A DNA stretch of 58,871 nt from Planctomycetota bacterium (lineage in GTDB: Bacteria; Planctomycetota; Phycisphaerae; UBA1845), in assembly GCA_038043045.1 (NCBI GenBank), contig JBBTCX010000166.1, positions 1 through 58,871 of the forward strand, given 5' to 3'. Below the pieces are notes generated by a model. That model searched no databases and was not told the origin of the DNA. It saw only the letters and a list, made by a program, of their open reading frames with translations. Within the stretch, counting starts at the first letter, position 1. Each line of letters opens with the position of its first letter. A program made the translations under genes and the position numbers. This document shows positions 15,790 to 35,196 of this stretch, piece after piece.

Positions 15790-18700
15790 CTACGGACAAG
15801 GCGGCGGACAGATCAGGAAATACGAATTGCCGGAAATGGCCTCCAGCAAGCCCAGCAAATCGTCCACGTCGATAACCCCGTCCGGATCGCAGTTCAACAA
15901 ATCCACGGCCGGCTGCGGCACTACGAGGAAGTTGCCCGCGAAACCCTCCAACAAAATCACTAGATCGTCGACATCCACCACGCCTGTGTCGTCGATGTCG
16001 CCCCATTCGTTCATTTGTACGGAAACCTCGACGGACAAGCCCGGGCCACAAAGCGTCATCACGCCGTATTGTGCTCCGGGAATTAGCGCTTCGCCATGTA
16101 CATCAACGCTTCCCCAAACCGACGGCAGGGCAAAGACCGGCGCTAAATCCAGCGATCCATCCGGTTGCACGAACTGCAAAACGCAAGCGACGTTTGGATC
16201 GCCCGCATCTCCGATAACCAAAAGCGCGACCGGCGCCAGCGCGGCCGCGGGCGTGATGTTGAGGTATCGCGGACCGTTGACCACCACTACCGGTGGATCA
16301 CAAATCAGCGGAATACACTCATCGTTCACCTCATCACAGGATTCGCCCGGACAAGGATCGCCGCTCGATTGGCAACCCAAGGTGACACTGCATGTCTCCG
16401 TACCCGTGCAGAACAAGCCGTCATCACACAGGGCGTCATTGGGGACATGATCGCAGGTGTCCGTCCCTTCATTACAGCTATCGGCCGTGCATGCGATGCC
16501 GTCATCGCAATTCACCGGTGTCCCACCCTGACATCCGAGTGTCGCGCTGCACGTCTCAATACCGTCGCAATATACGCCATTGCTGCAGGCGGCGTCATTA
16601 GGGAGGTGCACAATTACGTCATTCAACTCATCGCAGGTATCGACCGTGCAGGCGACTCCGTCATCCAACACCGGCGGCGTACCCGGCTGACAATTGGAAG
16701 CCACGCACGTTTCCGCCCCGTTGCAGAACGCCCCGTCGTCACAATCCGCGTCGATATTGCAAAAATCATTGGCACGAACGGAGAAATCATCCACCGCCGC
16801 CTCGATCAAGTTTCCGACCGCCGTACCATCGCTCGCACCGAAGCGAATCCGCATGGTCGAAGTCAAACTGATGAAATCATGGAGCGCCACAGTGCGCGGT
16901 GCCCAAATTTGTGCACTTTGTCCCGTACCGAGTGTCTCCAAACTGACCCAGTTCGCGCCGCCGTTGGATGACGCTTCGACGACAAAAAAGTCATCCACGT
17001 CAATTCCTCGATCTCGATTGTGGAACCATCGAACATAATTCAACTCTGCCCGAATCCGCGAACCCAAATTGATATTCGGCGAGACCAAATACGTCACCCC
17101 GCCATCCACGTCATCCACCGCCGGTGTCGAGTTTTGCGCGGTGAATGCACACCCCGCTCCGGCATTCGGCGTGTCGGGTTGCGCTTGACCAACAGTACCC
17201 CGCGTGCCATTCGGATCACCGAATATCCACGTTCCCGTAATGGCCGTGCTCCCGGCCCCGGATAACGTCCACCCTTGTCCATTGCCCGCGTCATAGTTTT
17301 CGCTGAAGATCGTATCACAGCGATCCGTTCCCGCCTGACACACGCCACCGACGCACGTTTCCGCGCCGTTGCAATATCGACCGTCGTCACAATCGCCGTT
17401 CGAATCGCAGGTACACGTGTAGATCGAAAGATCATCCACGTACCAACCGACGACCCCCGTGCATCCGTCCTTGCTCAAATCAAACCGGATTTGAACCGTC
17501 TGACCGCCGGTAACGAACCCGCTTAGGTCGATCAACGTCGTTCCCCATACTCCGCCCGCCCCGCACCACGATGGCTCACTGGCCTTGGGATTGGTGCTCC
17601 CCTGAGCCGCCGCAACCAGGGCCATGTTATACGGATTGTACAAAAACGCGGTCATGGGGACGTTCTGCCACGCACCGGCATTCACGCGAATTTGCATGGT
17701 TCCCGCATCAAACCCCGTTTCTGTCGCCAAGAAGTGGGTGAAGGACAAGGTCGGTCGGCTGAGAACAGCAGGCATTGCAATCACCGGACTAAACAGAGAG
17801 TGAACCGCGGATTCATCTTGTCCAGCACAATCACCAACTTCCGGGTCTGCCACGAACCAGGCCGTACCCGTTTGTCCAGCCACAAGATCGCTGGTCTGCA
17901 CCCAATCATAAGGCGTCGGCGGAGCGGTATTGGAAACTGTCCATCCATTCACGCCCCCTTCGAAATCATCCGCGAAAACGACGACCGGCGTATCGCATTG
18001 TACCGGCGGCGTCGGATTCAAATTATTCAAGTTCGACCCGCAGCGTCCGTCGGTATTCATTTCCACCGCGAGGAGCGCTTTATCCACTTCAAGTGCATCC
18101 GCCGCAGTAAACATGCTGGCCGACGGAAGACCGTCGCGCGGATCGTTCGGCGTGGTACCGATCAAATCCAAAGCGGCTTGGTTCAACGCATCATAGGCGT
18201 CCATGAAATCCGAAACTGGAGTAAGATAGACCGTCAATGCCCGATACCAAACCGCACCGGTCTTAATGGGTCCGATGGCGCTGACCGTGTACCCGTTAAA
18301 TGTTTTGCCGTCCGTCATGATCGCGTAGGCGTGGTTGGCGATTCCGCTGCCGCTATGCACGCCGCCGCTATCCGCCGAATTGCACGTTTGAAGAGGGCTG
18401 TTTGCTCGGTCTGGGTCGCCTTCGCACGGCGGATTCCACATATCTCGAATGGCTCCGCCAAACGCCGTGGCATCTTCCCCGACCAACCAACGCACTCCGT
18501 CCACGTGACCGGGACTATCGCTGCACGACGCCGTGCGACCGTTGTTCGGCGTATCCAATCCCGGCCCCGTAGGATGGGTCGGCCAACTCGGCAATCCTCC
18601 CGGCGTTCCCGGAAACGCCGCGTTGCCGTTAAACTGGTCGATCATTTCCCCAAAAATGTCTGAATACGCTTCATTGAGTTGTCCCGATTGGTTCTGATAG

Positions 18701-19743
18701 ATGAGACCGGCCGTCCGCTCAGTGACACCGTGTGTCATTTCGTGCGCAGTCACATCGTCCGTCACCGTGCCCAGGCAGAACACCATCTGCGTGCTGTTCC
18801 AAAACGCATTGGGACACGGCGGCGCGGTGGAATTCACCGTTAAAATGAGCGTCATACCACTGTCGTCGATGCTGTCCCGACCAAACGCCCGGAAGTAATA
18901 ATCATACGTATCGCCCGCATAGTCATACGCCCGGTTAGCATCTGCCGGACTCCCCACCGGCGGATCGCCCTCGTCGCGTATGAGCGCCCCCGGTAATGCC
19001 CCTCCACCCAATCCGTCATAAATCTCCCTCACCCGCGCCGTGTGAATCATGCTCCAACGATCCAAAACCGTTCCGGTTTGCGCATCCACGAAAAACGCCT
19101 CGCTCACCGGTACGGAAAGGTCCGTCAAAACCACGTGGTACGCCAGGTGCGCACCAATCGGCGGATCGCCATACCAACCCGGATCCACGATGACAAGTTC
19201 CGACTTCTCCACCCGGGGTTGCCCGACGCCAAGAGCGGTACGCGCGCCCGCGACGGCCGCATCCGCCGTGAGTCGCGGAGTGGTCAGCAGCTTCGCCGGA
19301 ATCGGATAAAAGTCCCCGTTGGCCGCTGTTACCTGCCCGATCGAATCTTGATGGACCTTCAACATGCCGGAAAACACCGGTATGTCGTCGTGCATCTGTT
19401 GATACGTGGTCGTCAATCGGCCGAGGGCGTCCGGCGCGACCTTGGTGAATTGCAACTGGGTCTTAGGATCGGAAACGCCGAAGACGGAGCCGTTAGTCAG
19501 TAAAAATTCCATCGGGTCCTTGGATGCCGCGGCCACTCCGCCCTGCATCTCAACAAGAAGTGGACCGCCATCGTCGCGTGAGACAAACGACGCCAACCCC
19601 GTCACTTGAGAACGACGAATCTTGGTTTCGCCATTCACCGCCTGCCCGAGGGTTTCCTTCGTAACGACGGCAACCACACACATGGAAAGCGCCGTCGCCA
19701 ACCATCCTGCGCCGCCCTGAACAAACCGACGGGTTGAACTCAT
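15790..19743 (-). CDS. Secreted M4 (thermolysin-like) metallopeptidase with beta-sandwich modules, Cys-rich repeats and a dockerin-like tail
   Basis: Signal peptide, FTP/PepSY-like prodomain, NAFWNSTQMVFC, VTAHEMTHGV...QSGQLNEAYSD and DSGGVHSGSG. The C-terminus has WGDIDDTGVVDVDDL and DPDGVIDVDDL. Start at ATG 19743 is probable. Confidence 0.9.
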   Translation of the reverse strand: MSSTRRFVQGGAGWLATALSMCVVAVVTKETLGQAVNGETKIRRSQVTGLASFVSRDDGGPLLVEMQGGVAAASKDPMEFLLTNGSVFGVSDPKTQLQFTKVAPDALGRLTTTYQQMHDDIPVFSGMLKVHQDSIGQVTAANGDFYPIPAKLLTTPRLTADAAVAGARTALGVGQPRVEKSELVIVDPGWYGDPPIGAHLAYHVVLTDLSVPVSEAFFVDAQTGTVLDRWSMIHTARVREIYDGLGGGALPGALIRDEGDPPVGSPADANRAYDYAGDTYDYYFRAFGRDSIDDSGMTLILTVNSTAPPCPNAFWNSTQMVFCLGTVTDDVTAHEMTHGVTERTAGLIYQNQSGQLNEAYSDIFGEMIDQFNGNAAFPGTPGGLPSWPTHPTGPGLDTPNNGRTASCSDSPGHVDGVRWLVGEDATAFGGAIRDMWNPPCEGDPDRANSPLQTCNSADSGGVHSGSGIANHAYAIMTDGKTFNGYTVSAIGPIKTGAVWYRALTVYLTPVSDFMDAYDALNQAALDLIGTTPNDPRDGLPSASMFTAADALEVDKALLAVEMNTDGRCGSNLNNLNPTPPVQCDTPVVVFADDFEGGVNGWTVSNTAPPTPYDWVQTSDLVAGQTGTAWFVADPEVGDCAGQDESAVHSLFSPVIAMPAVLSRPTLSFTHFLATETGFDAGTMQIRVNAGAWQNVPMTAFLYNPYNMALVAAAQGSTNPKASEPSWCGAGGVWGTTLIDLSGFVTGGQTVQIRFDLSKDGCTGVVGWYVDDLSIYTCTCDSNGDCDDGRYCNGAETCVGGVCQAGTDRCDTIFSENYDAGNGQGWTLSGAGSTAITGTWIFGDPNGTRGTVGQAQPDTPNAGAGCAFTAQNSTPAVDDVDGGVTYLVSPNINLGSRIRAELNYVRWFHNRDRGIDVDDFFVVEASSNGGANWVSLETLGTGQSAQIWAPRTVALHDFISLTSTMRIRFGASDGTAVGNLIEAAVDDFSVRANDFCNIDADCDDGAFCNGAETCVASNCQPGTPPVLDDGVACTVDTCDELNDVIVHLPNDAACSNGVYCDGIETCSATLGCQGGTPVNCDDGIACTADSCNEGTDTCDHVPNDALCDDGLFCTGTETCSVTLGCQSSGDPCPGESCDEVNDECIPLICDPPVVVVNGPRYLNITPAAALAPVALLVIGDAGDPNVACVLQFVQPDGSLDLAPVFALPSVWGSVDVHGEALIPGAQYGVMTLCGPGLSVEVSVQMNEWGDIDDTGVVDVDDLVILLEGFAGNFLVVPQPAVDLLNCDPDGVIDVDDLLGLLEAISGNSYFLICPPPCP
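16314..16761 (-). repeat. Cys-rich protein repeats (CDDGxxCxGxETC / DDGxACTxDxC) inside the M4 gene
   Basis: CDDGAFCNGAETC, CSNGVYCDGIETC and CDDGLFCTGTETC alternate with DDGVACTVDTC and DDGIACTADSC. One more copy (CDDGRYCNGAETC) lies at about 17318-17415. Confidence 0.85.
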
Positions 19744-20013
19744 ATCACTACCCCAATTCAAACATACACCATCCGACGCCTTCGATTTGAAAAGCGTCCG
19801 AACCACTCGTCCGTTTAACTACGGAACGAAACAAAGATAGACAAAAACCGCTGTCAAAATCCCCCCGGAAGGATTGCAGAAGCGTACGGAAAAGTTCCGA
19901 TCACGCTTCCATGCGACTACGTTCGCGCGAAGTCCCGATTCCTCTCAGCCATTTCAAAGAGGAAAACGAGGCACCCCGAGCCTCATGCGCGTCTTTACAA
20001 CTTAGAATGATAG

Positions 20014-20904
20014 TCAAAAAGGGTGTCGGACTGCAACTACCGGAGCTTCCGCTTGCGTCCCTTCGTCGTCCCGTTGCACCATCACAACCCCCCCGTTATC
20101 GCGGAATTGAAAGAACCACCGATCTCCCCAGGCCTCCATCACATCCACTCCGAGGATCAAATCCGGCAAGCCTTGGGTATCAAACGGCACTATACTGGCC
20201 CCTACGACCCCCAAGTCGACTCGACCAATAGTGATTTCCACCCTGCCATCCGACGTAATATTCGACCCCGGAAGACTCTCCAACATCTCCCTCCGACCTA
20301 CGCTAACCGATGCTCCGGTGTCCAAAATCGCCGTGATCGTCTGCCCGGCACCAGGTTCCGGTGGATCAAACCCAGCCGCTACCTCGATAAAAATGAAAGA
20401 CGTGGGAAATCCAGACAGATACGGCGGCGGCTCTACAAACCGAAGTTCCGCACCAACATCGGGAAGTTGTGGGTCAAATCGCACGCTGCCCGTTGAAAAA
20501 TCCAGCGCCAAGACCAATCCAGTTTCCCGAAAGAACCGAAACCCCACGCCGTTGCAATCACACAGGTCCGGGCCGATCAACGCAAACGGGGCCTCCCGCT
20601 CAACGCCGTTTACCAGATACCGAAATCCTTCCGTCACGGATACACTTTGCTCGCCACCGTAGGCCAAAACCCGCCCTTCGCCGACCACAGCCAAACCAAA
20701 GTCTTCCCGCAGTAGAACCTCGAAATCTCCGCCCGTATCCACAATCGCCGGAACAGCCGAAGCACCGTTGATCTCTAGCGGCACAAGAAAAAGCGAAGAA
20801 AGCGGCGTCGGGTCATAGGACCCGCAACCAGGCGGAATCAAACCAAACAAACCAAAAAGAATCGCGAGGGTTGTCCATCGACATCCTCGGTGGCGAATCA
20901 GCAT
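20014..20904 (-). CDS. Single-chain two-lobed aspartic protease (clan AA), probably membrane-anchored or a lipoprotein
   Basis: Two catalytic motifs, IVDTGG and ILDTGAS, plus psi-loop-like NGVG and DLILGVD. A hydrophobic N-terminus ends PPGC. Start uncertain (20904 or 20949). Confidence 0.75.
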   Translation of the reverse strand: MLIRHRGCRWTTLAILFGLFGLIPPGCGSYDPTPLSSLFLVPLEINGASAVPAIVDTGGDFEVLLREDFGLAVVGEGRVLAYGGEQSVSVTEGFRYLVNGVEREAPFALIGPDLCDCNGVGFRFFRETGLVLALDFSTGSVRFDPQLPDVGAELRFVEPPPYLSGFPTSFIFIEVAAGFDPPEPGAGQTITAILDTGASVSVGRREMLESLPGSNITSDGRVEITIGRVDLGVVGASIVPFDTQGLPDLILGVDVMEAWGDRWFFQFRDNGGVVMVQRDDEGTQAEAPVVAVRHPF

Positions 20905-21012
20905 GTTGGTCCATTTGCAAGTCATCAGATAGTTGATCGTACGGATCACCGCCTGTCTCGAACATGGGCTTCAATGAATTGCAAAAGAAGGGAAAGGGTT
21001 TCCTAATGCACC

Positions 21013-23151
21013 CTATCGAGTGATCCCGACTAGCCAAGGATCATAGGAATCCGCCCCGTTGAACAAGTCGATAATCCGAATCATGTCCCCCGGATCAAAT
21101 CCGCCGGATCGATTGATGTCGGTGGACCATAATGGGGCGACAACAGATTCTCCACTCAACATTTCCAGCAACGCCCGAACATCGTCCGTCGTTCGAGTCC
21201 CGTCCCCGTTCACATCACCCGGAAAATAACCCAAACGAACGGAAGTTTCACTCGCCACATGAGTAATCGTCGTCCACGTTCCCGGTTCCAAACTCTGATC
21301 AAAAACCAGCTTCACGTTGGTTGGGCCCATGACTCTGATTTCGATGATCCTTGGTGGTGAGATGTCCGTTCGAAGATGCGCGACTCGAAAATCGTCTTCG
21401 CCGATTGCTCCCACGGCGCCATTGAAATACACCTCCAAGGTTCGCCAACCTTGAAGTTGAGGATTCCCAATGTCTCGCGGCTGTCGAGCATCGATCGATC
21501 CATCCGGCGGATCGCTTCCGACAATTCGCGGCCCCGGTTCCGGAACGTGGCGAACGATCAATGCAACTTCGGTATAGCCGCTCCCAACTTCACTCTCCAC
21601 CGTCGCCCCGATCATGATGGGCAAATCCGCTTCCACATCCGTCGCGCGAAAGATTCCGGTCGCACCAATGGTTCCGGCCTCAAACGGCGACCATTGCCAT
21701 ACGGCCTCAGCCGTCAAGTCAATGGGGTCGCCGTCAAGAGGTATGCCCACCACGCGAAGTTGAGCAGAGCTTCGTTCCTGGATTTCAGCGGGCGCTTCGA
21801 TCAACAATCGTCGAAACGGGTTTACCAGGGTCAAGCAAGTCCGCGCATTTCGATAGGCTACGATATCCGGCGCGCTCCATTCCGGATGAAACTGATTCGC
21901 GCAGCTCAACGTCGCGTTCATCGTCCAACCACCGCAGTGACAATGCCCGGCACTCCAATTGTGTCCCAGTTCGTGGGCCGTCAGATCGGATTTACAGCTC
22001 AAACTACCGCAACACCCCGATTCCACCACACTGAAACTGTTCGTATTGCAAATACCGTAACGCCACGCCACGCCGATCGTCGATCCGGTTAATGGCCGAC
22101 CCGTAAAAAGCTGGGCAACGTCATAAACCCCATCCCCATGATGATTCCGCCATTGGTCGGCAAACTGCCGCAACAACGTGGCCGGATCTTCTGACGTATA
22201 CGGATCATCCTCCGTCGTTCGAATGATGATTCGCGTGATGACATGCCGAATTCCAACGTCACGTTCATACGCGGCGTTCGCCGCATGCAGAACCGCTTCG
22301 ATCTGATTCGCGGCGAGTAAGGCGTCGCCCATGTCGACGTAAAACTCATAGTCGCCGTCAACCGCCAGTTCGGCTTGAACTATCCCCAGGCCTTGACCGG
22401 CAACAAAACCGGGATCGCCTACAGACTCGGCGGTTTCATCCTCGCTCAGCAGCAGACAGTTTCCCCCAAGTTCCTGTGTCGATTCAGGCCGCAGGTTGTA
22501 ACTTTTCTCGTCGGTCGAATTTTCCTTTACCGGCTCCAACCAAAACACATGTTTGGTCGGCGTTTCGATCCTTGCATGAATTCCGCCCTGCAGCCATGAA
22601 CCTCGCACGTCGCTGCCCGGCCATTCTTCTACCACTCCGCGAAACGTCTGTACCGGTCCAGGTTCGATGGGTTCATAGGACCCACCCGGCAATTGCACGA
22701 CGACGCTGAATCCTCCCGCCCTTACACTGTCCGGCCACAGGTCAAAGGTAAAAGATCGCCCGCCAGAACTGAACGAGGCTTTCGTTTCGCCATCCACCCC
22801 GTATTCCAAACCCGTCATTCGCGCGGGACCTTCAAGATAGTGAACGAAAGATTCTCCGGACGAAACTGTTCCTTCTGGAGGTCCGCGATCGGCCAATACC
22901 CGCGCCGATGTAAACCCTGCTAAAATCAAAACCACTCGAACCGCATGCTTTAAAAACTGATAGGTTGGTGGCACCTGATTCAAGAACGAGTGAACGATCA
23001 CTATCAAAACCGACGGTTGCTTGCCTTTTGGCAACGGCTCTTCACTTCGTTGAATTCGAAGCGCCCGGCCGTTCCGGTAAGACCTACCCCAAGCACACCC
23101 CATCCTGATCCACCGGCCCCAAAAAACCCGAAAGCTCAAATCCCCCAGCAA
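21013..23151 (-). CDS. Secreted M12B/reprolysin-like metzincin with a C-terminal dockerin-like module
   Basis: AELAVDGDYEFY, DVAQLFTGR, TAHELGHNWSAGH and Met-turn WTMN. Tail PGDVNGDG...DINRSGGFD. The true start is probably downstream of 23151, since the signal-like segment is AVRVVLILAGFTSARVLA. Confidence 0.85.
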   Translation of the reverse strand: MLGDLSFRVFWGRWIRMGCAWGRSYRNGRALRIQRSEEPLPKGKQPSVLIVIVHSFLNQVPPTYQFLKHAVRVVLILAGFTSARVLADRGPPEGTVSSGESFVHYLEGPARMTGLEYGVDGETKASFSSGGRSFTFDLWPDSVRAGGFSVVVQLPGGSYEPIEPGPVQTFRGVVEEWPGSDVRGSWLQGGIHARIETPTKHVFWLEPVKENSTDEKSYNLRPESTQELGGNCLLLSEDETAESVGDPGFVAGQGLGIVQAELAVDGDYEFYVDMGDALLAANQIEAVLHAANAAYERDVGIRHVITRIIIRTTEDDPYTSEDPATLLRQFADQWRNHHGDGVYDVAQLFTGRPLTGSTIGVAWRYGICNTNSFSVVESGCCGSLSCKSDLTAHELGHNWSAGHCHCGGWTMNATLSCANQFHPEWSAPDIVAYRNARTCLTLVNPFRRLLIEAPAEIQERSSAQLRVVGIPLDGDPIDLTAEAVWQWSPFEAGTIGATGIFRATDVEADLPIMIGATVESEVGSGYTEVALIVRHVPEPGPRIVGSDPPDGSIDARQPRDIGNPQLQGWRTLEVYFNGAVGAIGEDDFRVAHLRTDISPPRIIEIRVMGPTNVKLVFDQSLEPGTWTTITHVASETSVRLGYFPGDVNGDGTRTTDDVRALLEMLSGESVVAPLWSTDINRSGGFDPGDMIRIIDLFNGADSYDPWLVGITR

Positions 23152-29499: not shown

Positions 29500-31500
29500 C
29501 TACGGACATGGACCCTGAGGCAGCGGCGACCCGATCATGCGAGAATAAGTTCCCGCGCCATTGAGCAAGTCCAACAGGCGAAGAAGATCGAGCGCGTTCG
29601 TTACTCCGCTGTGATCCATATCAAGCTGGTAGAGTGTGGCACTTGAACACGTTTGGGTGTGCGAAAATTGCTCCATGCAATCGACAGCCACGATGACATC
29701 GAGGGCATTAACGACGGAATCACCGTTTACATTTCCGGAATGAAAAATAAACGTGCCCTCGGATCCATCTCCTTCGTAGGTCAGGGTAGTCGCCGCCGAA
29801 GGAGTAATCGCACGGTCAAGTATAATCGTGTAGATGCCCAGTGGTCCTTCAAACACAGCCGCAATACCGTTAGCAAATCCATCGACGCGGGTCTCGCATA
29901 GCGTGAAGCATTCATCGTCCGCGCCTGACGGAGCTTGGACCGTGAGCACTTGGATTCCTTGTCGCGGAACGAAATCCACAATAGGGTGTGGTTGGCGAGC
30001 ATCGATGACGCCGTCCGGCGGATCCATGAAGATCACGCCACCTTTCTGTGGACAAAAAGGAGCGCGGCATGGCGGTTCAAATGGATCTGGCGTGCAAGCG
30101 CGATTAAAGGACCATCTGCCGGAGCATTGGTTTCGCAATTCGTCGTCGCTGCATTGGAACAAATCGCCGTCGCAGCAGGCCCCGCGCGCGGATTCACCGT
30201 AGCAAAAAACTCGTGATCGGAAGCTCCCGGCCGGGGTGCATCCGGTGCCGCCAGGGCAATTGGTCGGGGAAAATCCTCCAAAGTTTAGACCAGGCTCCCA
30301 TGTCCCCGTGTTTCGGGCATAGCCATCTTCGCTGGAGCCGACTTCTCCAAGACCGGCGGTCACCGGCCCCGAACTTCCCGTTGTCGTGGAAACCACGATC
30401 CAGAATTTAGCGGGAAGGACGGTCCCAGAGGGAAACGTCGGAGTGGCCAAGCGCTGGGTGTGCTGGTCGGACTGAATTCCGGCAAACGCCGCACGTGTTC
30501 CGGGAATGGGTAGAGCGGGTCGGTCGTCGATGGAGATGACGCCGTCTGGTCCCGGATCGTTTGTCCAAAGCTCTAATGTGGCACCGAATGAGGGCGTGCC
30601 GAGAGTTCCGGTGACCGACAACTCGTACTGGGCCAATTCGCAAGGGAGGGCCCCGGTGGAAAGACGAATATCGTCCGCGACTTGCGTGCTGAAAACGATG
30701 GGAAGAAAAGTACCGGTAAGAAAACGATTGTCGAAACCGAGATAGGTTGGCTCGCACGGATTCGGCGAACACGTGCTCCCGGTTCCTCGCCAAATTCCGG
30801 AACATTCGGATTCCGAGATCTCTTGACATGCTTCGTCGTTGCAGCACGCCCCTTTTGGTGGCGGTGGCAAATCGCATTCGAGCGTTGCCCAGAATCCGGA
30901 ATAAGGAAACGGAGGGCCCGGTCCGAAAAAGAAAAGGGAACACAGATTCGTAGCCGTACGCTCTAATGAAAAGAAATTGCCGGTGTGTCCGGTTTCGGCT
31001 TCTTCCGCGATGACCCAGCCGCTGGTGCTTGTGGAAAAGCCCACGCGCATCCAAACGATACCGGGAACGACTACCGGGTCGGTGAAGGATTGCCTAAGCG
31101 TCTGAGGTGAACCATTGGCCGGAAGGTCGGGCCAGTCTGATTCCGTTCCCGTGATCAGAACTCCGCCATTGCACGGGTCGCCATTCCACAGTTCCACATG
31201 TACGTCAAACATCCCGCCGCCGGTGCCCGCAACCAACAACTCGTAGGAGACCATTTCGCAACCGAACGGCTCTGTCGTGGTCAGATCGTCCGAAAGTATA
31301 ACTCCGAGTCCAGGAGCGCTAAAAAGTCCAGCGAATGTACGGGTATTCTCGTATACGATCGTACCGTTAAGAGTGCCGGCGATGACGGGTGTGGGTGCAT
31401 GACGGTATTCGCCGGTCGAAAGGGTGATCGCATCCTGTGCGATGCCATCGGCACAAATCATGGCGCAAAGCGCATGGAATAAGCATCGTCGGATATCCAA
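29500..31500 (-). CDS. Secreted Cys-rich repeat protein with a C-terminal dockerin-like module
   Basis: TTG start with GAGGGG upstream. Two internal units (SDDLTTTEPFGCEMVSYELLVAGT and ADDIRLSTGALPCELAQYELSVTGT) are each followed by a GACC...C...C motif. Tail GNVNGDSVVNALD...DMDHSGVTNALD. Confidence 0.8.
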   Translation of the reverse strand: MDIRRCLFHALCAMICADGIAQDAITLSTGEYRHAPTPVIAGTLNGTIVYENTRTFAGLFSAPGLGVILSDDLTTTEPFGCEMVSYELLVAGTGGGMFDVHVELWNGDPCNGGVLITGTESDWPDLPANGSPQTLRQSFTDPVVVPGIVWMRVGFSTSTSGWVIAEEAETGHTGNFFSLERTATNLCSLFFFGPGPPFPYSGFWATLECDLPPPPKGACCNDEACQEISESECSGIWRGTGSTCSPNPCEPTYLGFDNRFLTGTFLPIVFSTQVADDIRLSTGALPCELAQYELSVTGTLGTPSFGATLELWTNDPGPDGVISIDDRPALPIPGTRAAFAGIQSDQHTQRLATPTFPSGTVLPAKFWIVVSTTTGSSGPVTAGLGEVGSSEDGYARNTGTWEPGLNFGGFSPTNCPGGTGCTPAGSFRSRVFCYGESARGACCDGDLFQCSDDELRNQCSGRWSFNRACTPDPFEPPCRAPFCPQKGGVIFMDPPDGVIDARQPHPIVDFVPRQGIQVLTVQAPSGADDECFTLCETRVDGFANGIAAVFEGPLGIYTIILDRAITPSAATTLTYEGDGSEGTFIFHSGNVNGDSVVNALDVIVAVDCMEQFSHTQTCSSATLYQLDMDHSGVTNALDLLRLLDLLNGAGTYSRMIGSPLPQGPCP

Positions 31501-31767: not shown

Positions 31768-32958
31768 ATGAAAACTCTGTTTTGGTCTTTGGTCTTGTTA
31801 TCACAAGTTCAGCCCGGACCCGTTTGGACGGGTTCAAGTGCGCCGCAGCGGAACCCTTATGGCCCGGTCGACATGGATGATGGGGGGCAGGGCACGGCGG
31901 ACCCTTATTGGCGCTTGATGACGCTTGCGGATTTTCTGGATACGGCGGAGGAAGAGTTGACCGCGACTGGAGTTGGCGAACCATTCGGGGTGAGTATGCG
32001 ACTTTCGGAGCCGACCGTTCAGTCGGGGTTGCCTATTTCGTCGGCGTTCGCGTTTGTGACGCTTTCCGTTCCCGGTGCGGATATCGGATCGGGAGAGCTT
32101 TCCATCGTGGCCAATTCGGATACCGGCGTAGTGAACTTCAGAATGGAGATCGTCGAGTTCGATGCGGTTCGGATTCTGGACCTTGATGTGACACTTTCCG
32201 GCGGCGTACTTTTGGAATGGGGAACGCTGAGCGTGGATACGGGTGCGACAACGACGACGTACTCCGGCGGGTGGGTGTATACGCACGCGGATGGCTTGTC
32301 GACGCACCCGGATTCGGATGAGGGGTTTCATGATGAAGCGGCGGTGATGTTTCATGTGATTCTGCCGGAGCCGGAGCGAAAAGGGAGGAGTCTGCGAGCG
32401 CCGCCGTTGCTCAGTACGATCTTCGCACACATTGGCAACATTGCCTCGCACTTGGTTGTATCAATCATCGACGCTTTTCGCCCCTACACCGCGCCGACTT
32501 CCTGTTCGGGGCCGATCGTCTATAACGGGGCTGGGCAAAGCTGCGAAAATGCGTTTCCCTGCTTAACCATACTGGAGGATCTCTGCCTAAAAATTGACGA
32601 GATTCCCGATGTTTCGGTAGCGTTCAAGAAGTGCATGAAGGGTCGATGCGGCTGCGGCGGGTCCAGCCATAGACGATTGCGGATTTCGTGTGACGATGCA
32701 AGCGATTGCGGGTCCTGCGGATCTGTCCCCGGTTGCAGCAACTTCGGCGCAACGATTTGGTATTGCGAGAACAACAATCTCGAGTGCCGATGTGCCGGAA
32801 TTGTGTTTCACGAAATGACACATTCTTGCGGCATAGGTCATTCGTTGGAGTACACTTTGAATCCGGATTGTGATATTCCCAATGACTCCGCGTGCCAGAT
32901 TGGTGAGATGTTCGAAGACGAATGCATAGCTGCGTCCCCCAATTTCGAGGAGCCATGA
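31768..32958 (+). CDS. Secreted protein with a Cys-rich C-terminal zinc-metallopeptidase-like domain
   Basis: Signal-like N-terminus. HEMTHSCGIGH (HExxHxxGxxH) at 32809-32841. 18 Cys in the last ~155 aa. Confidence 0.75.
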   Translation: MKTLFWSLVLLSQVQPGPVWTGSSAPQRNPYGPVDMDDGGQGTADPYWRLMTLADFLDTAEEELTATGVGEPFGVSMRLSEPTVQSGLPISSAFAFVTLSVPGADIGSGELSIVANSDTGVVNFRMEIVEFDAVRILDLDVTLSGGVLLEWGTLSVDTGATTTTYSGGWVYTHADGLSTHPDSDEGFHDEAAVMFHVILPEPERKGRSLRAPPLLSTIFAHIGNIASHLVVSIIDAFRPYTAPTSCSGPIVYNGAGQSCENAFPCLTILEDLCLKIDEIPDVSVAFKKCMKGRCGCGGSSHRRLRISCDDASDCGSCGSVPGCSNFGATIWYCENNNLECRCAGIVFHEMTHSCGIGHSLEYTLNPDCDIPNDSACQIGEMFEDECIAASPNFEEP

Positions 32959-33447
32959 ATGAAGTCGATCGTAAATGAGAATTGCCTAAATTGGGGCATG
33001 TACTGTTTGATATTTCCGCCGTTTTGCTTTTTGCTCGGGAATTTCAGTTGTCTTCCAGGAGATTGTGCGGATTATTTGAACGTCCAAGGGGTTGTGTTCG
33101 ATGGCGCCTCGGAGACGCCGCTAGTTGGAGCCTTTTTAGGCGGACGGGCATTCACGGCAGGATTGGAGACCGATTTTATTGCTGCGGTGATTTCTGACGG
33201 TGGCCCGAACGGACCGCCCTCCGATGAAAATGGACGATTTCTGTTGCCATTTTGGACTGGGCTGGGTAGGTGCCAGCCTTTCCCCGATTTCCCATTTCCA
33301 GATCTGGTGGAGATCATCGTTGTGCGAGATGGATGCGAACAGCGGTTCATGATTGATATCAATGAAGAAACCGTGGTTGACTTATCCGCGCCGAACGACA
33401 CCCTGCAACTTCGGGAGCCGATTCGCGTACCGGCGTGTCCGGGATAG
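32959..33447 (+). CDS. Array lipoprotein-like paralogue L1
   Basis: Abuts the protease stop, with SD GAGGAG inside the protease 3' end. Hydrophobic segment then FSC. Shares GAFLGG, DGGPNGPPSD and EIIVVRDGCEQRFMIDINEETVVDLS...LQLREPIRVPACP with L2 and L4. Confidence 0.8.
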   Translation: MKSIVNENCLNWGMYCLIFPPFCFLLGNFSCLPGDCADYLNVQGVVFDGASETPLVGAFLGGRAFTAGLETDFIAAVISDGGPNGPPSDENGRFLLPFWTGLGRCQPFPDFPFPDLVEIIVVRDGCEQRFMIDINEETVVDLSAPNDTLQLREPIRVPACPG

Positions 33448-33451
33448 GAGG

Positions 33452-33520
33452 CCGGATGGAACCGGGGATTGGTTTCAAGCAGAGTGTTTTGCTTCTTCGC
33501 CATCGCCTGAGGAGCCCTAG
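33452..33520 (+). pseudogene. Orphan copy 1 of the protease C-terminal tail
   Basis: Translates PDGTGDWFQAECFASSPSPEEP*, compared with the protease end PNDSACQIGEMFEDECIAASPNFEEP*. Carries the GAGGAG SD for L2. Confidence 0.75.
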
Positions 33521-33523
33521 AGA

Positions 33524-34009
33524 ATGAGTAGCAGTAAAAAAACAAAATCATTTCGCTCGAAGTTTTGTCTCCTCGGATTTACCCTGCTTTTGTGTTTGTT
33601 TGGAGCGAGCTGTGGGCCTTTGGGGCATTGCGAAGATTTTTTGTATGTGGAGGGGTTGCTGTTGGATGAGTCCTCGGGAGCGCCGATTGCGGGAGCGTTC
33701 CTGGGTGGAACAGCATTTACCGGAGGCGTGGAAACTGATTCCTACCCACCCGTGATCTTTGATGGAGGACCCAACGGGCCACCCTCTGACGCGCAGGGTC
33801 GATTTCGAATCGAGTTTGGAATTATCTTGGGTGGGTGCAATCCTCCGCCGGTGTTTCCAATGCCCGACCAAGTTGAAATTGTCGTCGTGCGCGATGGATG
33901 CGAACAGCGGTTTATGATCGACATCAACGAGGAAACCGTCGTCGACTTATCCGCGCCAGATGACATCTTGCAACTTCGAGAGCCGATTCGTGTGCCGGCT
34001 TGTCCCTGA
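33524..34009 (+). CDS. Array lipoprotein-like paralogue L2
   Basis: Basic N-region, hydrophobic core and LFGASC, with the same conserved blocks as L1 and L4. Confidence 0.85.
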   Translation: MSSSKKTKSFRSKFCLLGFTLLLCLFGASCGPLGHCEDFLYVEGLLLDESSGAPIAGAFLGGTAFTGGVETDSYPPVIFDGGPNGPPSDAQGRFRIEFGIILGGCNPPPVFPMPDQVEIVVVRDGCEQRFMIDINEETVVDLSAPDDILQLREPIRVPACP

Positions 34010-34085
34010 TGGGAAAGGGTGCGAGATTGGGGACAGGTTTCAGGATGAATGCGTAATTAGTTTACCCAATACGCCGGTTCCTTGA
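34005..34085 (+). pseudogene. Orphan copy 2 of the protease C-terminal tail
   Basis: Translates PDGKGCEIGDRFQDECVISLPNTPVP*. Same length (26 codons plus stop) as the protease segment at 32878-32958. Confidence 0.8.
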
Positions 34086-34568
34086 TTGCGGCAACGGAGT
34101 GTCATTTCCATGAAGCAGTTATTATTATTCCATCAGGCTGGGCTAACAGCCCGCGTTGCCGCACTCTTGGGGGGTGTCTGCTTTTTTCTGTTGAATAGCA
34201 CATGTATCCACCGCGATTGTTTTCCGTACCTGAATCTGCGGGGGCAAGTGCTGGACGCGGAAACCCAAAACCCTTTGTCCGAGGTAACAATTCGCGGGCG
34301 ATCGCTGAATGACGGTCAGTTGCCGCTTGGGTTTTACACCGAAGACATGCAAACGGTTGTTAATGGCACATTCCTTGTGAGTTTTGACGATGAACGAGGA
34401 ATTTGTGAACCATTTCCTATTCCGGATCAAGTGGAAATCACAGTTGTTCTAAGCACTTGCGATCGCGTGTTCTTGATAGAAGTGAACGCGGACACATTCG
34501 TCGACCCGACGTTTCCAATGATGGAGGGCGAGTTGCGCGAGTCCATTCTCGTTCCGCCGTGTCCCTGA
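34086..34568 (+). CDS. Array lipoprotein-like paralogue L3 (most diverged)
   Basis: Hydrophobic segment then NSTC. Keeps all Cys, GQVLDAETQNPL, PDQVEITVV and LRESILVPPCP. Start is TTG 34086 or ATG 34110. Confidence 0.75.
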   Translation: MRQRSVISMKQLLLFHQAGLTARVAALLGGVCFFLLNSTCIHRDCFPYLNLRGQVLDAETQNPLSEVTIRGRSLNDGQLPLGFYTEDMQTVVNGTFLVSFDDERGICEPFPIPDQVEITVVLSTCDRVFLIEVNADTFVDPTFPMMEGELRESILVPPCP

Positions 34569-34635
34569 TGGGAAGGCGTGCGAGATTGGGAACTGGTTTG
34601 AGGATGAATGTATCCTGGTCGAGCCGATACCATGA
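34564..34635 (+). pseudogene. Orphan copy 3 of the protease C-terminal tail
   Basis: Translates PDGKACEIGNWFEDECILVEPIP*. Confidence 0.8.
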
Positions 34636-34659
34636 TGCAAGTGGTCAAATAGTGACCGT

Positions 34660-35196
34660 ATGTGTCAATTGGAAGTGCCAAGGAGCGCAAGTGCTTTGGA
34701 ATTGTTGAAGATGAACATGAGATTTCGCGAACGACATGCGGATTCGTTTGCGGCCATCGAGTTGGCCGTCGTTGCGGTTTGGCTGGTCGGGTTAAGCGGA
34801 TGCATTTATGCACATTGTAGCGATTTTCTGTATTTGGACGGGATGCTTTTAGATGGGTCCGCCGGAGAGCCGATTGAAGGCGCCTTCTTAGGTGGAACGT
34901 CGTTTACCGGAGGAGAGGAAACTTACTCTTTCCCGGCCGTGATCTTTGATGGCGGACCTGACCAGCCACCCTCTGACGTTCAAGGTCGGTTTCTTCTGGA
35001 GTTTTCTTCTGATCTTGGCGGGTGCGATCCGCCGCCGGAGTTTCTGATGCCGGATCAGATAGAGATCGTCGTCGTGCGGGATGGGTGTGAACAGCGGTTC
35101 ATGATCGACATCAACGAAGAAACCGTGGTCGATCTTTCTCCGCCGAATGACACTCTGCAACTTCGGGAGCCGATTCGCGTGCCGGCGTGTCCGTAG
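34660..35196 (+). CDS. Array lipoprotein paralogue L4
   Basis: Canonical lipobox LSGC and the same conserved blocks as L1 and L2. Start may be ATG 34711 or 34717. Confidence 0.82.
   Translation: MCQLEVPRSASALELLKMNMRFRERHADSFAAIELAVVAVWLVGLSGCIYAHCSDFLYLDGMLLDGSAGEPIEGAFLGGTSFTGGEETYSFPAVIFDGGPDQPPSDVQGRFLLEFSSDLGGCDPPPEFLMPDQIEIVVVRDGCEQRFMIDINEETVVDLSPPNDTLQLREPIRVPACP

Follow-up and report, generated by a model that had tools for sequence, protein, structure and literature searches.

Why should the spacers in a row of lipoprotein genes read like the end of the protease gene in front of them? The question is raised by five co-directional genes on the plus strand, lying within positions 31768-35196 of a 58,871-nt stretch of DNA (the window, by which we mean the whole stretch analysed) from a Planctomycetota bacterium (GTDB Phycisphaerae; UBA1845; assembly GCA_038043045.1, 4.55 Mb; contig JBBTCX010000166.1). 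The main gene (31768..32958), recognized by its open reading frame (ORF), its homologues and an AlphaFold2 model, encodes a secreted protein of 396 aa with an HExxH motif, called the protease below for convenience, and it is followed by four lipoprotein-like genes, L1 to L4. The initial annotation had described each spacer as a hidden, diverged copy (tail) of the last 22-26 codons of the protease, and had derived each unit of tail plus lipoprotein from a different protease allele rather than from the decay of one local duplication. The answer that we reach is that the locus is probably an array of effector/immunity-like cassettes from a polymorphic gene family, seen so far in Phycisphaerae only, and that the tails are protease 3' ends left behind by recombination.

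In a DNA alignment of the four units, every spacer between L1 and L4 holds a divergent version of the main gene's final ~26 codons. The functional tail, T0 (32878..32958), consists of these 26 codons and TGA and encodes a predicted C-terminal helix; the ATG of L1 (32959..33447, 162 aa) abuts this stop. The orphan tails, all on the plus strand like the genes, are T1 (33440..33520), before L2 (33524..34009, 161 aa); T2 (34005..34085; PDGKGCEIGDRFQDECVISLPNTPVP and TGA), which stands in the +1 frame relative to L2 (tgt CCC TGA Tgg) and precedes the divergent lipoprotein type L3 (34110..34568, with TTG 34086 as an alternative start); and T3 (34564..34635; PDGKACEIGNWFEDECILVEPIP and TGA), before L4 (34711..35196), the last paralogue, which ends on its own TAG with no tail behind it. 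The peptides quoted for the tails were reproduced exactly on translating 32878-32955, 33452-33517, 34005-34082 and 34564-34632, as were the third-base differences in the Glu-Cys codons, together with the stops (GAA TGC/TGA in T0, GAG TGT/TAG in T1, GAA TGC/TGA in T2, GAA TGT/TGA in T3). Searches of the whole assembly by tblastn linked T2 with T3 (E=6e-5), T3 with T0 (6e-4) and T2 with T0 (2e-3), and more weakly T1 with T0 (E=0.08-0.1), while the family hidden Markov model (HMM) detected T3 on its own. Since the tail also has the same position, orientation, order and frame relation in every spacer, these matches confirm the tails as such.

One of the three copies had to be redrawn. All three spacers do hold protease ends, but T1 is not the shorter piece at 33452-33520: ungapped, it has 26 codons at 33440-33517 (RDRRPDGTGDWFQAEC...; RDRRPDGT, then GDWFQAECFASSPSPEEP and TAG), of which the first third, eight codons, is scrambled and the last 18 are clear. 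In units 1 and 2 the same number of nucleotides separates the L stop region from the GGTTT of the 'WF' codons, which argues that T1 likewise comprises 26 codons. The former matching of PDGT in T1 with PDGK would require a 12-nt deletion and a compensating insertion, and it dissolves in the ungapped alignment. A four-codon in-frame deletion in T1 vanishes there too; hence the argument that only in-frame indels occur rests on one 9-nt gap, common to T3, T3b and the tail of P2, the protease of the second locus described below.

The reading frame of the tails proved less telling than had been thought. Here each tail is indeed in frame with the next lipoprotein (at spacings of 0, 3, 24 and 75 nt), but only 5 of 13 related genomic loci have the protease in frame with its first L, as chance would give, and the agreement carries no general meaning. 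The Shine-Dalgarno (SD) sequence GAGGAG that T1 was said to supply for L2 is present, 9 nt before ATG 33524, and T0 holds the same sequence 6 nt before ATG 32959, for L1. Scans of the array for promoters, terminators and inverted repeats or hairpins found none in the tails, and a role as attC-like element or attenuator was dropped for lack of such signals. An integron test gave no attC-type inverted repeats in the tails, the spacers being homologous to protease coding sequence instead; no integrase was seen among the eight upstream ORFs of at least 200 aa (Pfam) or the ORFs flanking the array, in a scan of the window that was not exhaustive.

How the tails diverged can be read from their codons. 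Between tail types, in codon alignment, the proportion of synonymous differences (pS) is 0.58-0.93, against 0.22-0.42 for non-synonymous ones (pN). For the orphans T1-T3 the differences at codon positions 1, 2 and 3 amount to 21, 18 and 37 of 64, and for T0 against the unambiguous last 18 codons of T1 to 6, 4 and 13, with 10 of these 18 residues identical despite saturated third positions. When two copies of T0 were left to decay neutrally in simulation, both frames stayed open with the stop kept in 12% of runs at d=0.5 and 3% at d=1.0; at d>=0.5, the residues G, F, E, C and terminal P were all retained in at most 0.4% of runs, and the observed asymmetry between codon positions arose in at most 0.2% (p<=0.002). 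The retention of these residues and of the stop, as well as the claim that the tails diverged while coding, therefore stand, and most tail differences must have arisen within working genes. The conserved part of the tails also coincides with the part conserved in the family. Neutral decay from one local duplication is thus disfavoured, as judged from the substitution pattern and from the mosaics described below. Signs of later decay are seen as well, namely the scrambled first eight codons of T1, a Glu at the invariant Gly in T3b and, between T2 and its counterpart T2b at the second locus, two changes that are both non-synonymous.

The same assembly holds a second, paralogous array on three contigs, C158, C172 and C303. 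Its flanks are not homologous to those of the window, and we therefore treat it as a separate locus rather than as a co-binned strain, although the bin may be a mixture. C158 carries the N-half of a protease (88% aa identity to that of the window), C172 (1361 nt) the C-half (63%), ending in ...PNETACEIGNWFEDECNLAGPTP and a stop. The synonymous divergence (dS) between the window protease P and this protease, P2, is 0.25 in the N-half and 1.58 in the C-half, a contrast which indicates that the C-terminal domain was replaced on a young N-terminal part. On C172, the protease with its T3-type tail is followed by the 75-nt spacer that joins T3 to L4, by a lipoprotein gene, La, and by a T2-type tail (T2b). 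La is a chimera, L4-like in its signal part and L2-like in its mature part, and T2b differs from T2 at 2 of 57 nt (2 non-synonymous, 0 synonymous), whereas the adjacent synonymous sites of L2 and La differ at 30%. The end of C303 holds a partial L3-type gene, a T3-type tail (PDGKACEIENWFEDECNLAGPTP and a stop) and an L4-type gene. A search by tblastn for full-length proteases ending in the tails and followed by the matching lipoprotein, as the initial annotation had proposed, thus succeeded for the T3 type, with the protease C-terminal domain on C172; no such allele was found for T1 or T2, for which word-index searches with L2 and L3 returned almost only the copies of this genome. Locus 2 can be derived from a window-like array by an unequal L4xL2 crossover and a T0xT3 crossover.

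The allele at the second locus is now disrupted or rearranged, as its protease halves break at the same codon (GN/IAS) on different contigs, while both ends of C172 and the end of C303 run into multi-copy repeats resembling insertion sequences (IS). The sequences concerned (C172:1-60 and 1306-1361, C303:18401-18456) recur in seven to >15 other contigs, mostly at contig ends; they look like termini of IS or of miniature inverted-repeat transposable elements, which would have struck the array at least twice. The split itself, equivalent to window ~32440, separates C158:9873-10577 (minus strand), which runs on into unique sequence, from C172:144-689, preceded by ~110 nt of unrelated sequence behind the repeat end, and a similar 9-mer on the two sides (TTGGGAAT and TTGGAAAC) may be a decayed target-site duplication. 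Public groundwater metagenome runs yielded short unitigs only, which confirmed pieces of both loci and gave no new arrangement. In one unitig of groundwater run X1, a 6-nt insertion (TGTTCC) at window 33914 equals two extra residues (FL) of La, which implies that reads from one locus also map to the other in this conserved region.

Does the arrangement recur elsewhere? We compared 13 loci from Phycisphaerae/Planctomycetota genomes and 22 from metagenomes, and every related locus with downstream sequence has one to four L homologues behind the protease, the protease stop and L start being adjacent or overlapping (TGAATG in the window, ATGA in L036). Many arrays hold orphan C-terminal fragments of the protease between their L genes, from ~19 to 155 codons or more, starting anywhere from HMM position ~184 to ~341. 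An intact fragment of 155 codons is found in L001, L018 and L026, one of 52 codons in L002, two in L031 (44 and 163 codons), one of 132 codons in L012 along with a frameshifted copy with HKxxH, and further fragments in L017, L025, L029, L030, L032 and L033, while L013 and L016 have short tails like those of the window. The frameshifted L012 copy (L012:1829-2086), in which the catalytic Glu is replaced (VVFHKASHACG) and a frameshift lies just upstream, is an orphan in decay.

Two of these loci were compared in more detail. In L001, nt identity between the main gene and the 155-codon orphan drops from 88% in the first 72 codons to 55% in the last 90 (pS 0.86, pN 0.34), as in a mosaic. The orphan in L016 (...PWFEARCNELPGTVRSGGK and a stop), together with its L and another 700 nt, matches the L036 sequence in which the full-length protease P0012 ends and its L follows, at 99.9% over 1268 nt, and the main protease and first L of L016 are themselves 85% identical to the L036 operon. 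Beyond this match (L036:1196-2463 with L016:6405-7672), L016:7688-8353 is 100% identical to L036:1-666, so that the two sequences, which stem from different databases, probably overlap as one locus; the merged locus would then have a second protease gene ~2.5 kb downstream, as a tandem repeat of the whole operon. In a tree of 55 L sequences, the arrays of L001, L004, L008, L016 and L031 mix distant clades and those of L009 and L013 hold sister pairs, from which we conclude that both import of foreign modules and local duplication occur.

What the genes encode is a matter of prediction. The main protein consists of a signal peptide, a Cys-free N-terminal beta domain and a C-terminal domain with 18 Cys and the motif HEMTHSCGIGH (HExxHxxGxxH). 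Pfam gave only Astacin, below threshold (E=0.31, 11.1 bits against a cut-off of 22.5), NCBIfam nothing, and a profile and sequence search of the PDB no significant match; it is from the motif that the protein would be called a metallopeptidase. A word-index search found 32 homologues, and a 30-member family alignment shows H348, E349 and H352, as well as many Cys, to be invariant; G355 is almost invariant, H or D occupies the third zinc-ligand position, and G379 and F382, both inside the tail, are nearly invariant. The AlphaFold2 model (predicted local distance difference test, pLDDT, 84.6) has the N-terminal beta domain, a long helix and a small C-terminal domain, of which the tail is the last helix (residues 374-389, block pLDDT 86-94). 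The C-terminal domain falls into 42 clusters at 50% identity among 1.84 billion representatives and is always terminal, in proteins of 76-630 aa, the shortest of which are presumably orphan fragments called as genes.

For L, Pfam and NCBIfam hold no family, and the searches gave a generic transthyretin-like fold at most. The confident L2 model (pLDDT 88.6) shows a signal/lipoprotein helix and a beta sandwich with weak best matches to transthyretin-like and CarboxypepD_reg-like folds. L3 is 32-37% identical to L1, L2 and L4, and comparisons among the latter paralogues gave dS of 1.0-2.4 with omega of 0.08-0.17; in the tree, L1, L2, L4, La and L4b form one clade (100/98) and L3 with L3b a separate long branch. 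Before the presumed lipobox Cys, L1 (NFSC), L2 (GASC) and L3 (NSTC) have non-canonical residues and may be ordinary secreted proteins rather than lipoproteins, whereas L4, with its canonical LSGC, and most family members have G, A or S at -1 and L at -3 or -4. Where L4 begins is ambiguous, since ATG 34660, TTG 34696 and ATG 34711 are all in frame; the TTG sits 10 nt after AAGGAG (34680-34685), and the locus-2 copies have an in-frame TAA just upstream of the equivalent of ATG 34711.

Around the array lie mnmE downstream and, upstream on the opposite strand, ahcY and a dockerin-domain protein (666 aa, Cys-rich). The minus strand upstream (window 15790-23151 and 29500-31500) also encodes secreted peptidases of the M4 (thermolysin-like, 1338 aa) and M12B (reprolysin-like, 712 aa) families, a region rich in secreted proteases.

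The homology of the tails, their divergence of coding type, the mosaic structure and the presence of the pattern at related loci are all found in the DNA itself, and a single course of events could account for them. The main gene would encode a secreted, disulfide-rich, metzincin-like HExxH effector, with the C-terminal domain as its variable part, and the small transthyretin-fold lipoprotein directly downstream would be the cognate inhibitor or immunity protein. Recombination would repeatedly have put new modules of C-terminal domain plus lipoprotein behind the conserved N-terminal part, either by import or by reshuffling existing modules through unequal crossover. Older lipoprotein genes would have been displaced downstream, each preceded by the remnant of its own protease 3' end, in the window a minimal one of 18-26 codons corresponding to the C-terminal helix. 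The tails would now be untranslated relics whose differences were gained as ends of working protease alleles, although the 3' ends of T0 and T1 supply the ribosome-binding site of the next lipoprotein. Homologous exchange, whether among units or across the two loci, would now take place mainly at the junction between the L 3' end and the tail, and could join a protease anew to an orphan tail and to the lipoproteins that follow it, as in locus 2. The extra lipoproteins would be retained immunity or inhibitor genes. Protease activity, toxicity, inhibition or immunity conferred by L and a benefit of the extra L genes are, in this scheme, inferences drawn from gene arrangement and motif.

Several observations weigh against so full a reading. 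That the HExxH protein acts as protease or toxin and that L binds it are predictions. No Met is conserved downstream of the motif as a Met-turn among the 30 aligned sequences, M381 of T0 being W in most members, and a Foldseek search with the whole model, the C-terminal domain alone not having been searched, returned no metzincin and nothing at E<=0.001. Among the clusters at 50% identity the C-terminal domain is never fused to large or Rhs-like carriers, and Pfam and NCBIfam showed no delivery domain or linked secretion system, only the signal peptide and housekeeping neighbours. The clustering of L1, L2 and L4 and the junction common to T2 and T3 suggest that local duplication, rather than import, produced part of the array. 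As for the full-length allele with a T3-type tail, it is pieced together from two contigs flanked by IS-like repeats and was not seen intact. Lastly, between the two loci the tails show so few recent differences (11 non-synonymous, 7 synonymous) that neutrality and constraint cannot be told apart.

Of the rival explanations, the one that survives best accepts the same genetics with a housekeeping biology: a secreted protease and a lipoprotein partner (a self-protecting inhibitor, folding helper or anchor), the array having diversified against varied substrates or foreign proteases. Periplasmic inhibitors do adjoin secreted metzincins, as in serralysin/Inh; here the protein has a signal peptide only, with no delivery machinery nearby, its C-terminal domain is never fused to toxin carriers, and the window also encodes the secreted M4 and M12B proteases and the dockerin protein. 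However, a variable C-terminus on a conserved N-terminus, orphan modules and mixed arrays of partners form the signature of conflict systems (PMC3150448, PMC5361080) and are not known for housekeeping protease/inhibitor pairs, so that we hold this explanation to be possible but rather unlikely.

It is less probable, and on balance doubtful, that the tails are selected today as DNA elements, that is, as homology anchors ('silent cassettes') with or without expression signals for the next lipoprotein. The best-conserved DNA between the two loci is indeed the junction, formed by the last ~40 nt of L and the first ~45 nt of the tail. Island 1 (33931..34050, plus strand), made up of the L2 3' end and the initial ~45 nt of T2, matches the second locus at 93-97%, compared with 80-88% in the rest of L2, and island 2 (34490..34610, plus strand; the same parts of L3 and T3) at 97-98%, compared with 58-72% in the rest of L3. 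Within the window, the T2 and T3 junctions are 83% identical over 75 nt, while the L2 and L3 proteins are 32% identical. We read the islands as traces of recent gene conversion or crossover at the only stretch common to all units. Islands of 93-98% centred on the junction between flanks of 58-88%, the 2 of 57 nt between T2 and T2b beside 30% at L2/La synonymous sites, the derivation of locus 2 by L4xL2 and T0xT3 crossovers and the GAGGAG sequences within T0 and T1 would all fit selected anchors, a role that Poole et al. proposed for orphan cdiA-CT (PMC3150448). Against this, recent gene conversion without selection gives equal islands, the tails have no promoter-like site or hairpin, the SD accounts for the last ~5 codons only and in T0 and T1 only, the invariant Gly has become Glu in T3b and the first eight codons of T1 are scrambled, and selection for evolvability is weak. 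That the junction is a selected anchor, whose silent cassettes swap the C-terminal helix and shuffle, duplicate or re-activate L genes between loci and strains, is in our opinion unlikely; were it true, it would be a minimal, 20-codon form of orphan-module switching in a family and a phylum without a described interbacterial toxin system.

Still less probable, indeed very unlikely, is plain local tandem duplication, in which a segment from 80 nt before the protease stop to the lipoprotein end was amplified once in this lineage and the tails have been neutral junk ever since. The orphan tails all begin at the same place after the L stop, and T2 and T3 share a junction and differ at 6 of 48 nt over their first 16 codons (42 of 48 identical), the last 10 being unalignable. 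L1, L2 and L4 form one clade, and the sister L pairs in L009 and L013 prove that the process occurs. Yet with L dS at 1.0-2.4, tail positions 1 and 2 are much better kept than position 3, the stops and motif are retained contrary to neutral expectation, L3 is a foreign type, the C-terminal halves of P and P2 are ancient alleles on a young N-terminal half, and a T3-type tail is present on a protease C-terminal domain. The derivation from different protease alleles, as opposed to local duplication, accordingly holds for the T3 type, found on the C172 protease, and has a parallel in another population, in L016/L036; as stated for each unit it is too strong, because of the common T2/T3 junction, the 6 of 48 nt and the single clade (100/98) of L1, L2 and L4. 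Unequal crossover and gene conversion inside the array have acted as well. The initial annotation was thus largely right and is partly supported, having overstated its case for 'each unit' and for the reading frame.

Weakest of all, and in our view scarcely credible, is that the tails are translated, either through a +1 frameshift at CCC-UGA, a shift-prone context, where L2 and L3 end (the lipoprotein would then gain a C-terminal helix like that of the protease) or as small independent peptides. Although L2, L3, La and L3b all end in tgt CCC TGA Tgg, the +1 frame being that of the tail, and the substitution pattern is of the coding type, the L1/T1 junction (CCG GGA TAG) has no such site, no SD-like stimulator lies upstream, T3 has no start codon in its own frame and T1 and T2 have fortuitous overlapping starts at most, the orphan tails of L016 and L013 lie tens of nt behind the L stop, the L001 orphan shares sequence, read in a different frame, with the 3' end of the L before it, and orphan fragments elsewhere are frameshifted or HKxxH-mutated, so that the frameshift, failing at L1/T1 and in other genomes, was rejected.

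If the array of effector and immunity genes that we favour is real, Planctomycetota (Phycisphaerae), a phylum with few descriptions of interbacterial conflict systems, would have a compact metallopeptidase effector that is Sec-dependent and disulfide-rich and is paired with lipoprotein immunity. Neither gene family of the pair is annotated (Pfam and NCBIfam have no model), and at 50% identity only ~40 clusters are found among 1.8 billion proteins. The short remnants offer a clean natural record of the positions of recombination junctions and, even at 20 codons, still bear the signature of past coding constraint.

How does such an array compare with known systems? With the metzincins (serralysin AprA with Inh; the astacin and snapalysin motifs), the main protein shares HExxHxxGxx(H/D) and a helix after the motif, and with AprA/Inh the combination of a secreted enzyme and a small envelope-located partner encoded next door. 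In contrast to metzincins, its Astacin match (E=0.31) stays below threshold, with no conserved Met-turn and no fold match in the PDB, and L is a transthyretin-like sandwich, not the beta-barrel of Inh; AprA/Inh is not known to form arrays or leave orphans. In the type VII secretion system, the immunity paralogues EsaG and TsaI form tandem non-identical copies that evolve by homologous recombination (PMC9484751). Tandem copies reshaped in this way are likewise seen here, La (L4 5' / L2 3') being such a product, whereas phylum, secretion route and protein families differ.

A closer parallel is found in type VI secretion system (T6SS) effector/immunity arrays of Vibrio cholerae, where immunity genes are sequentially displaced and an old effector 3' end is occasionally kept (Kirchberger et al. 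2017, PMC5361080). There, too, one effector is followed by several immunity genes of differing types, homologous recombination and illegitimate insertion have been invoked, and the phylogenetic test (paralogues clustering or not) gives a mixed outcome, as it does here. Unlike those arrays, ours has no T6SS context, an effector remnant is retained by almost all of the extra genes, and the homology between units suffices for unequal crossover.

The parallel extends further to contact-dependent growth inhibition (CDI) and Rhs systems, whose orphan modules and C-terminal displacement are also reported on by Jackson et al. 2009. Orphan cdiA-CT/cdiI and rhs-CT/rhsI modules are start-less fragments, each with an immunity gene, that equal full-length ends in other strains (PMC3150448, PMC3967940), and in these arrays deletions can join the main gene to an orphan (Poole et al. 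2011, PMC3150448; Koskiniemi et al. 2014, PMC3967940). Like them, the present family combines a conserved N-part and a variable C-terminal domain with a small cognate gene, followed by arrays of 5'-truncated, start-less C-terminal fragments, each with its own small gene; its orphans equal full-length gene ends elsewhere (L016/L036, T3/C172), and both share deletions that load an orphan onto the main gene and IS elements in the arrays. Unlike CDI and Rhs proteins, the main protein has only ~400 aa and no two-partner-secretion, YD-repeat, PAAR or VENN/PxxxxDPxGL motif, the window remnants (18-26 codons) are far shorter than typical orphans, the partner is a lipoprotein and toxicity is here a prediction. 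The orphan-module mechanism is already known, and what appears to be new is not the mechanism but its instance in an unannotated, undescribed family of groundwater Phycisphaerae, a pair whose genetics resemble those of the polymorphic toxin/immunity systems known from Proteobacteria and Firmicutes.

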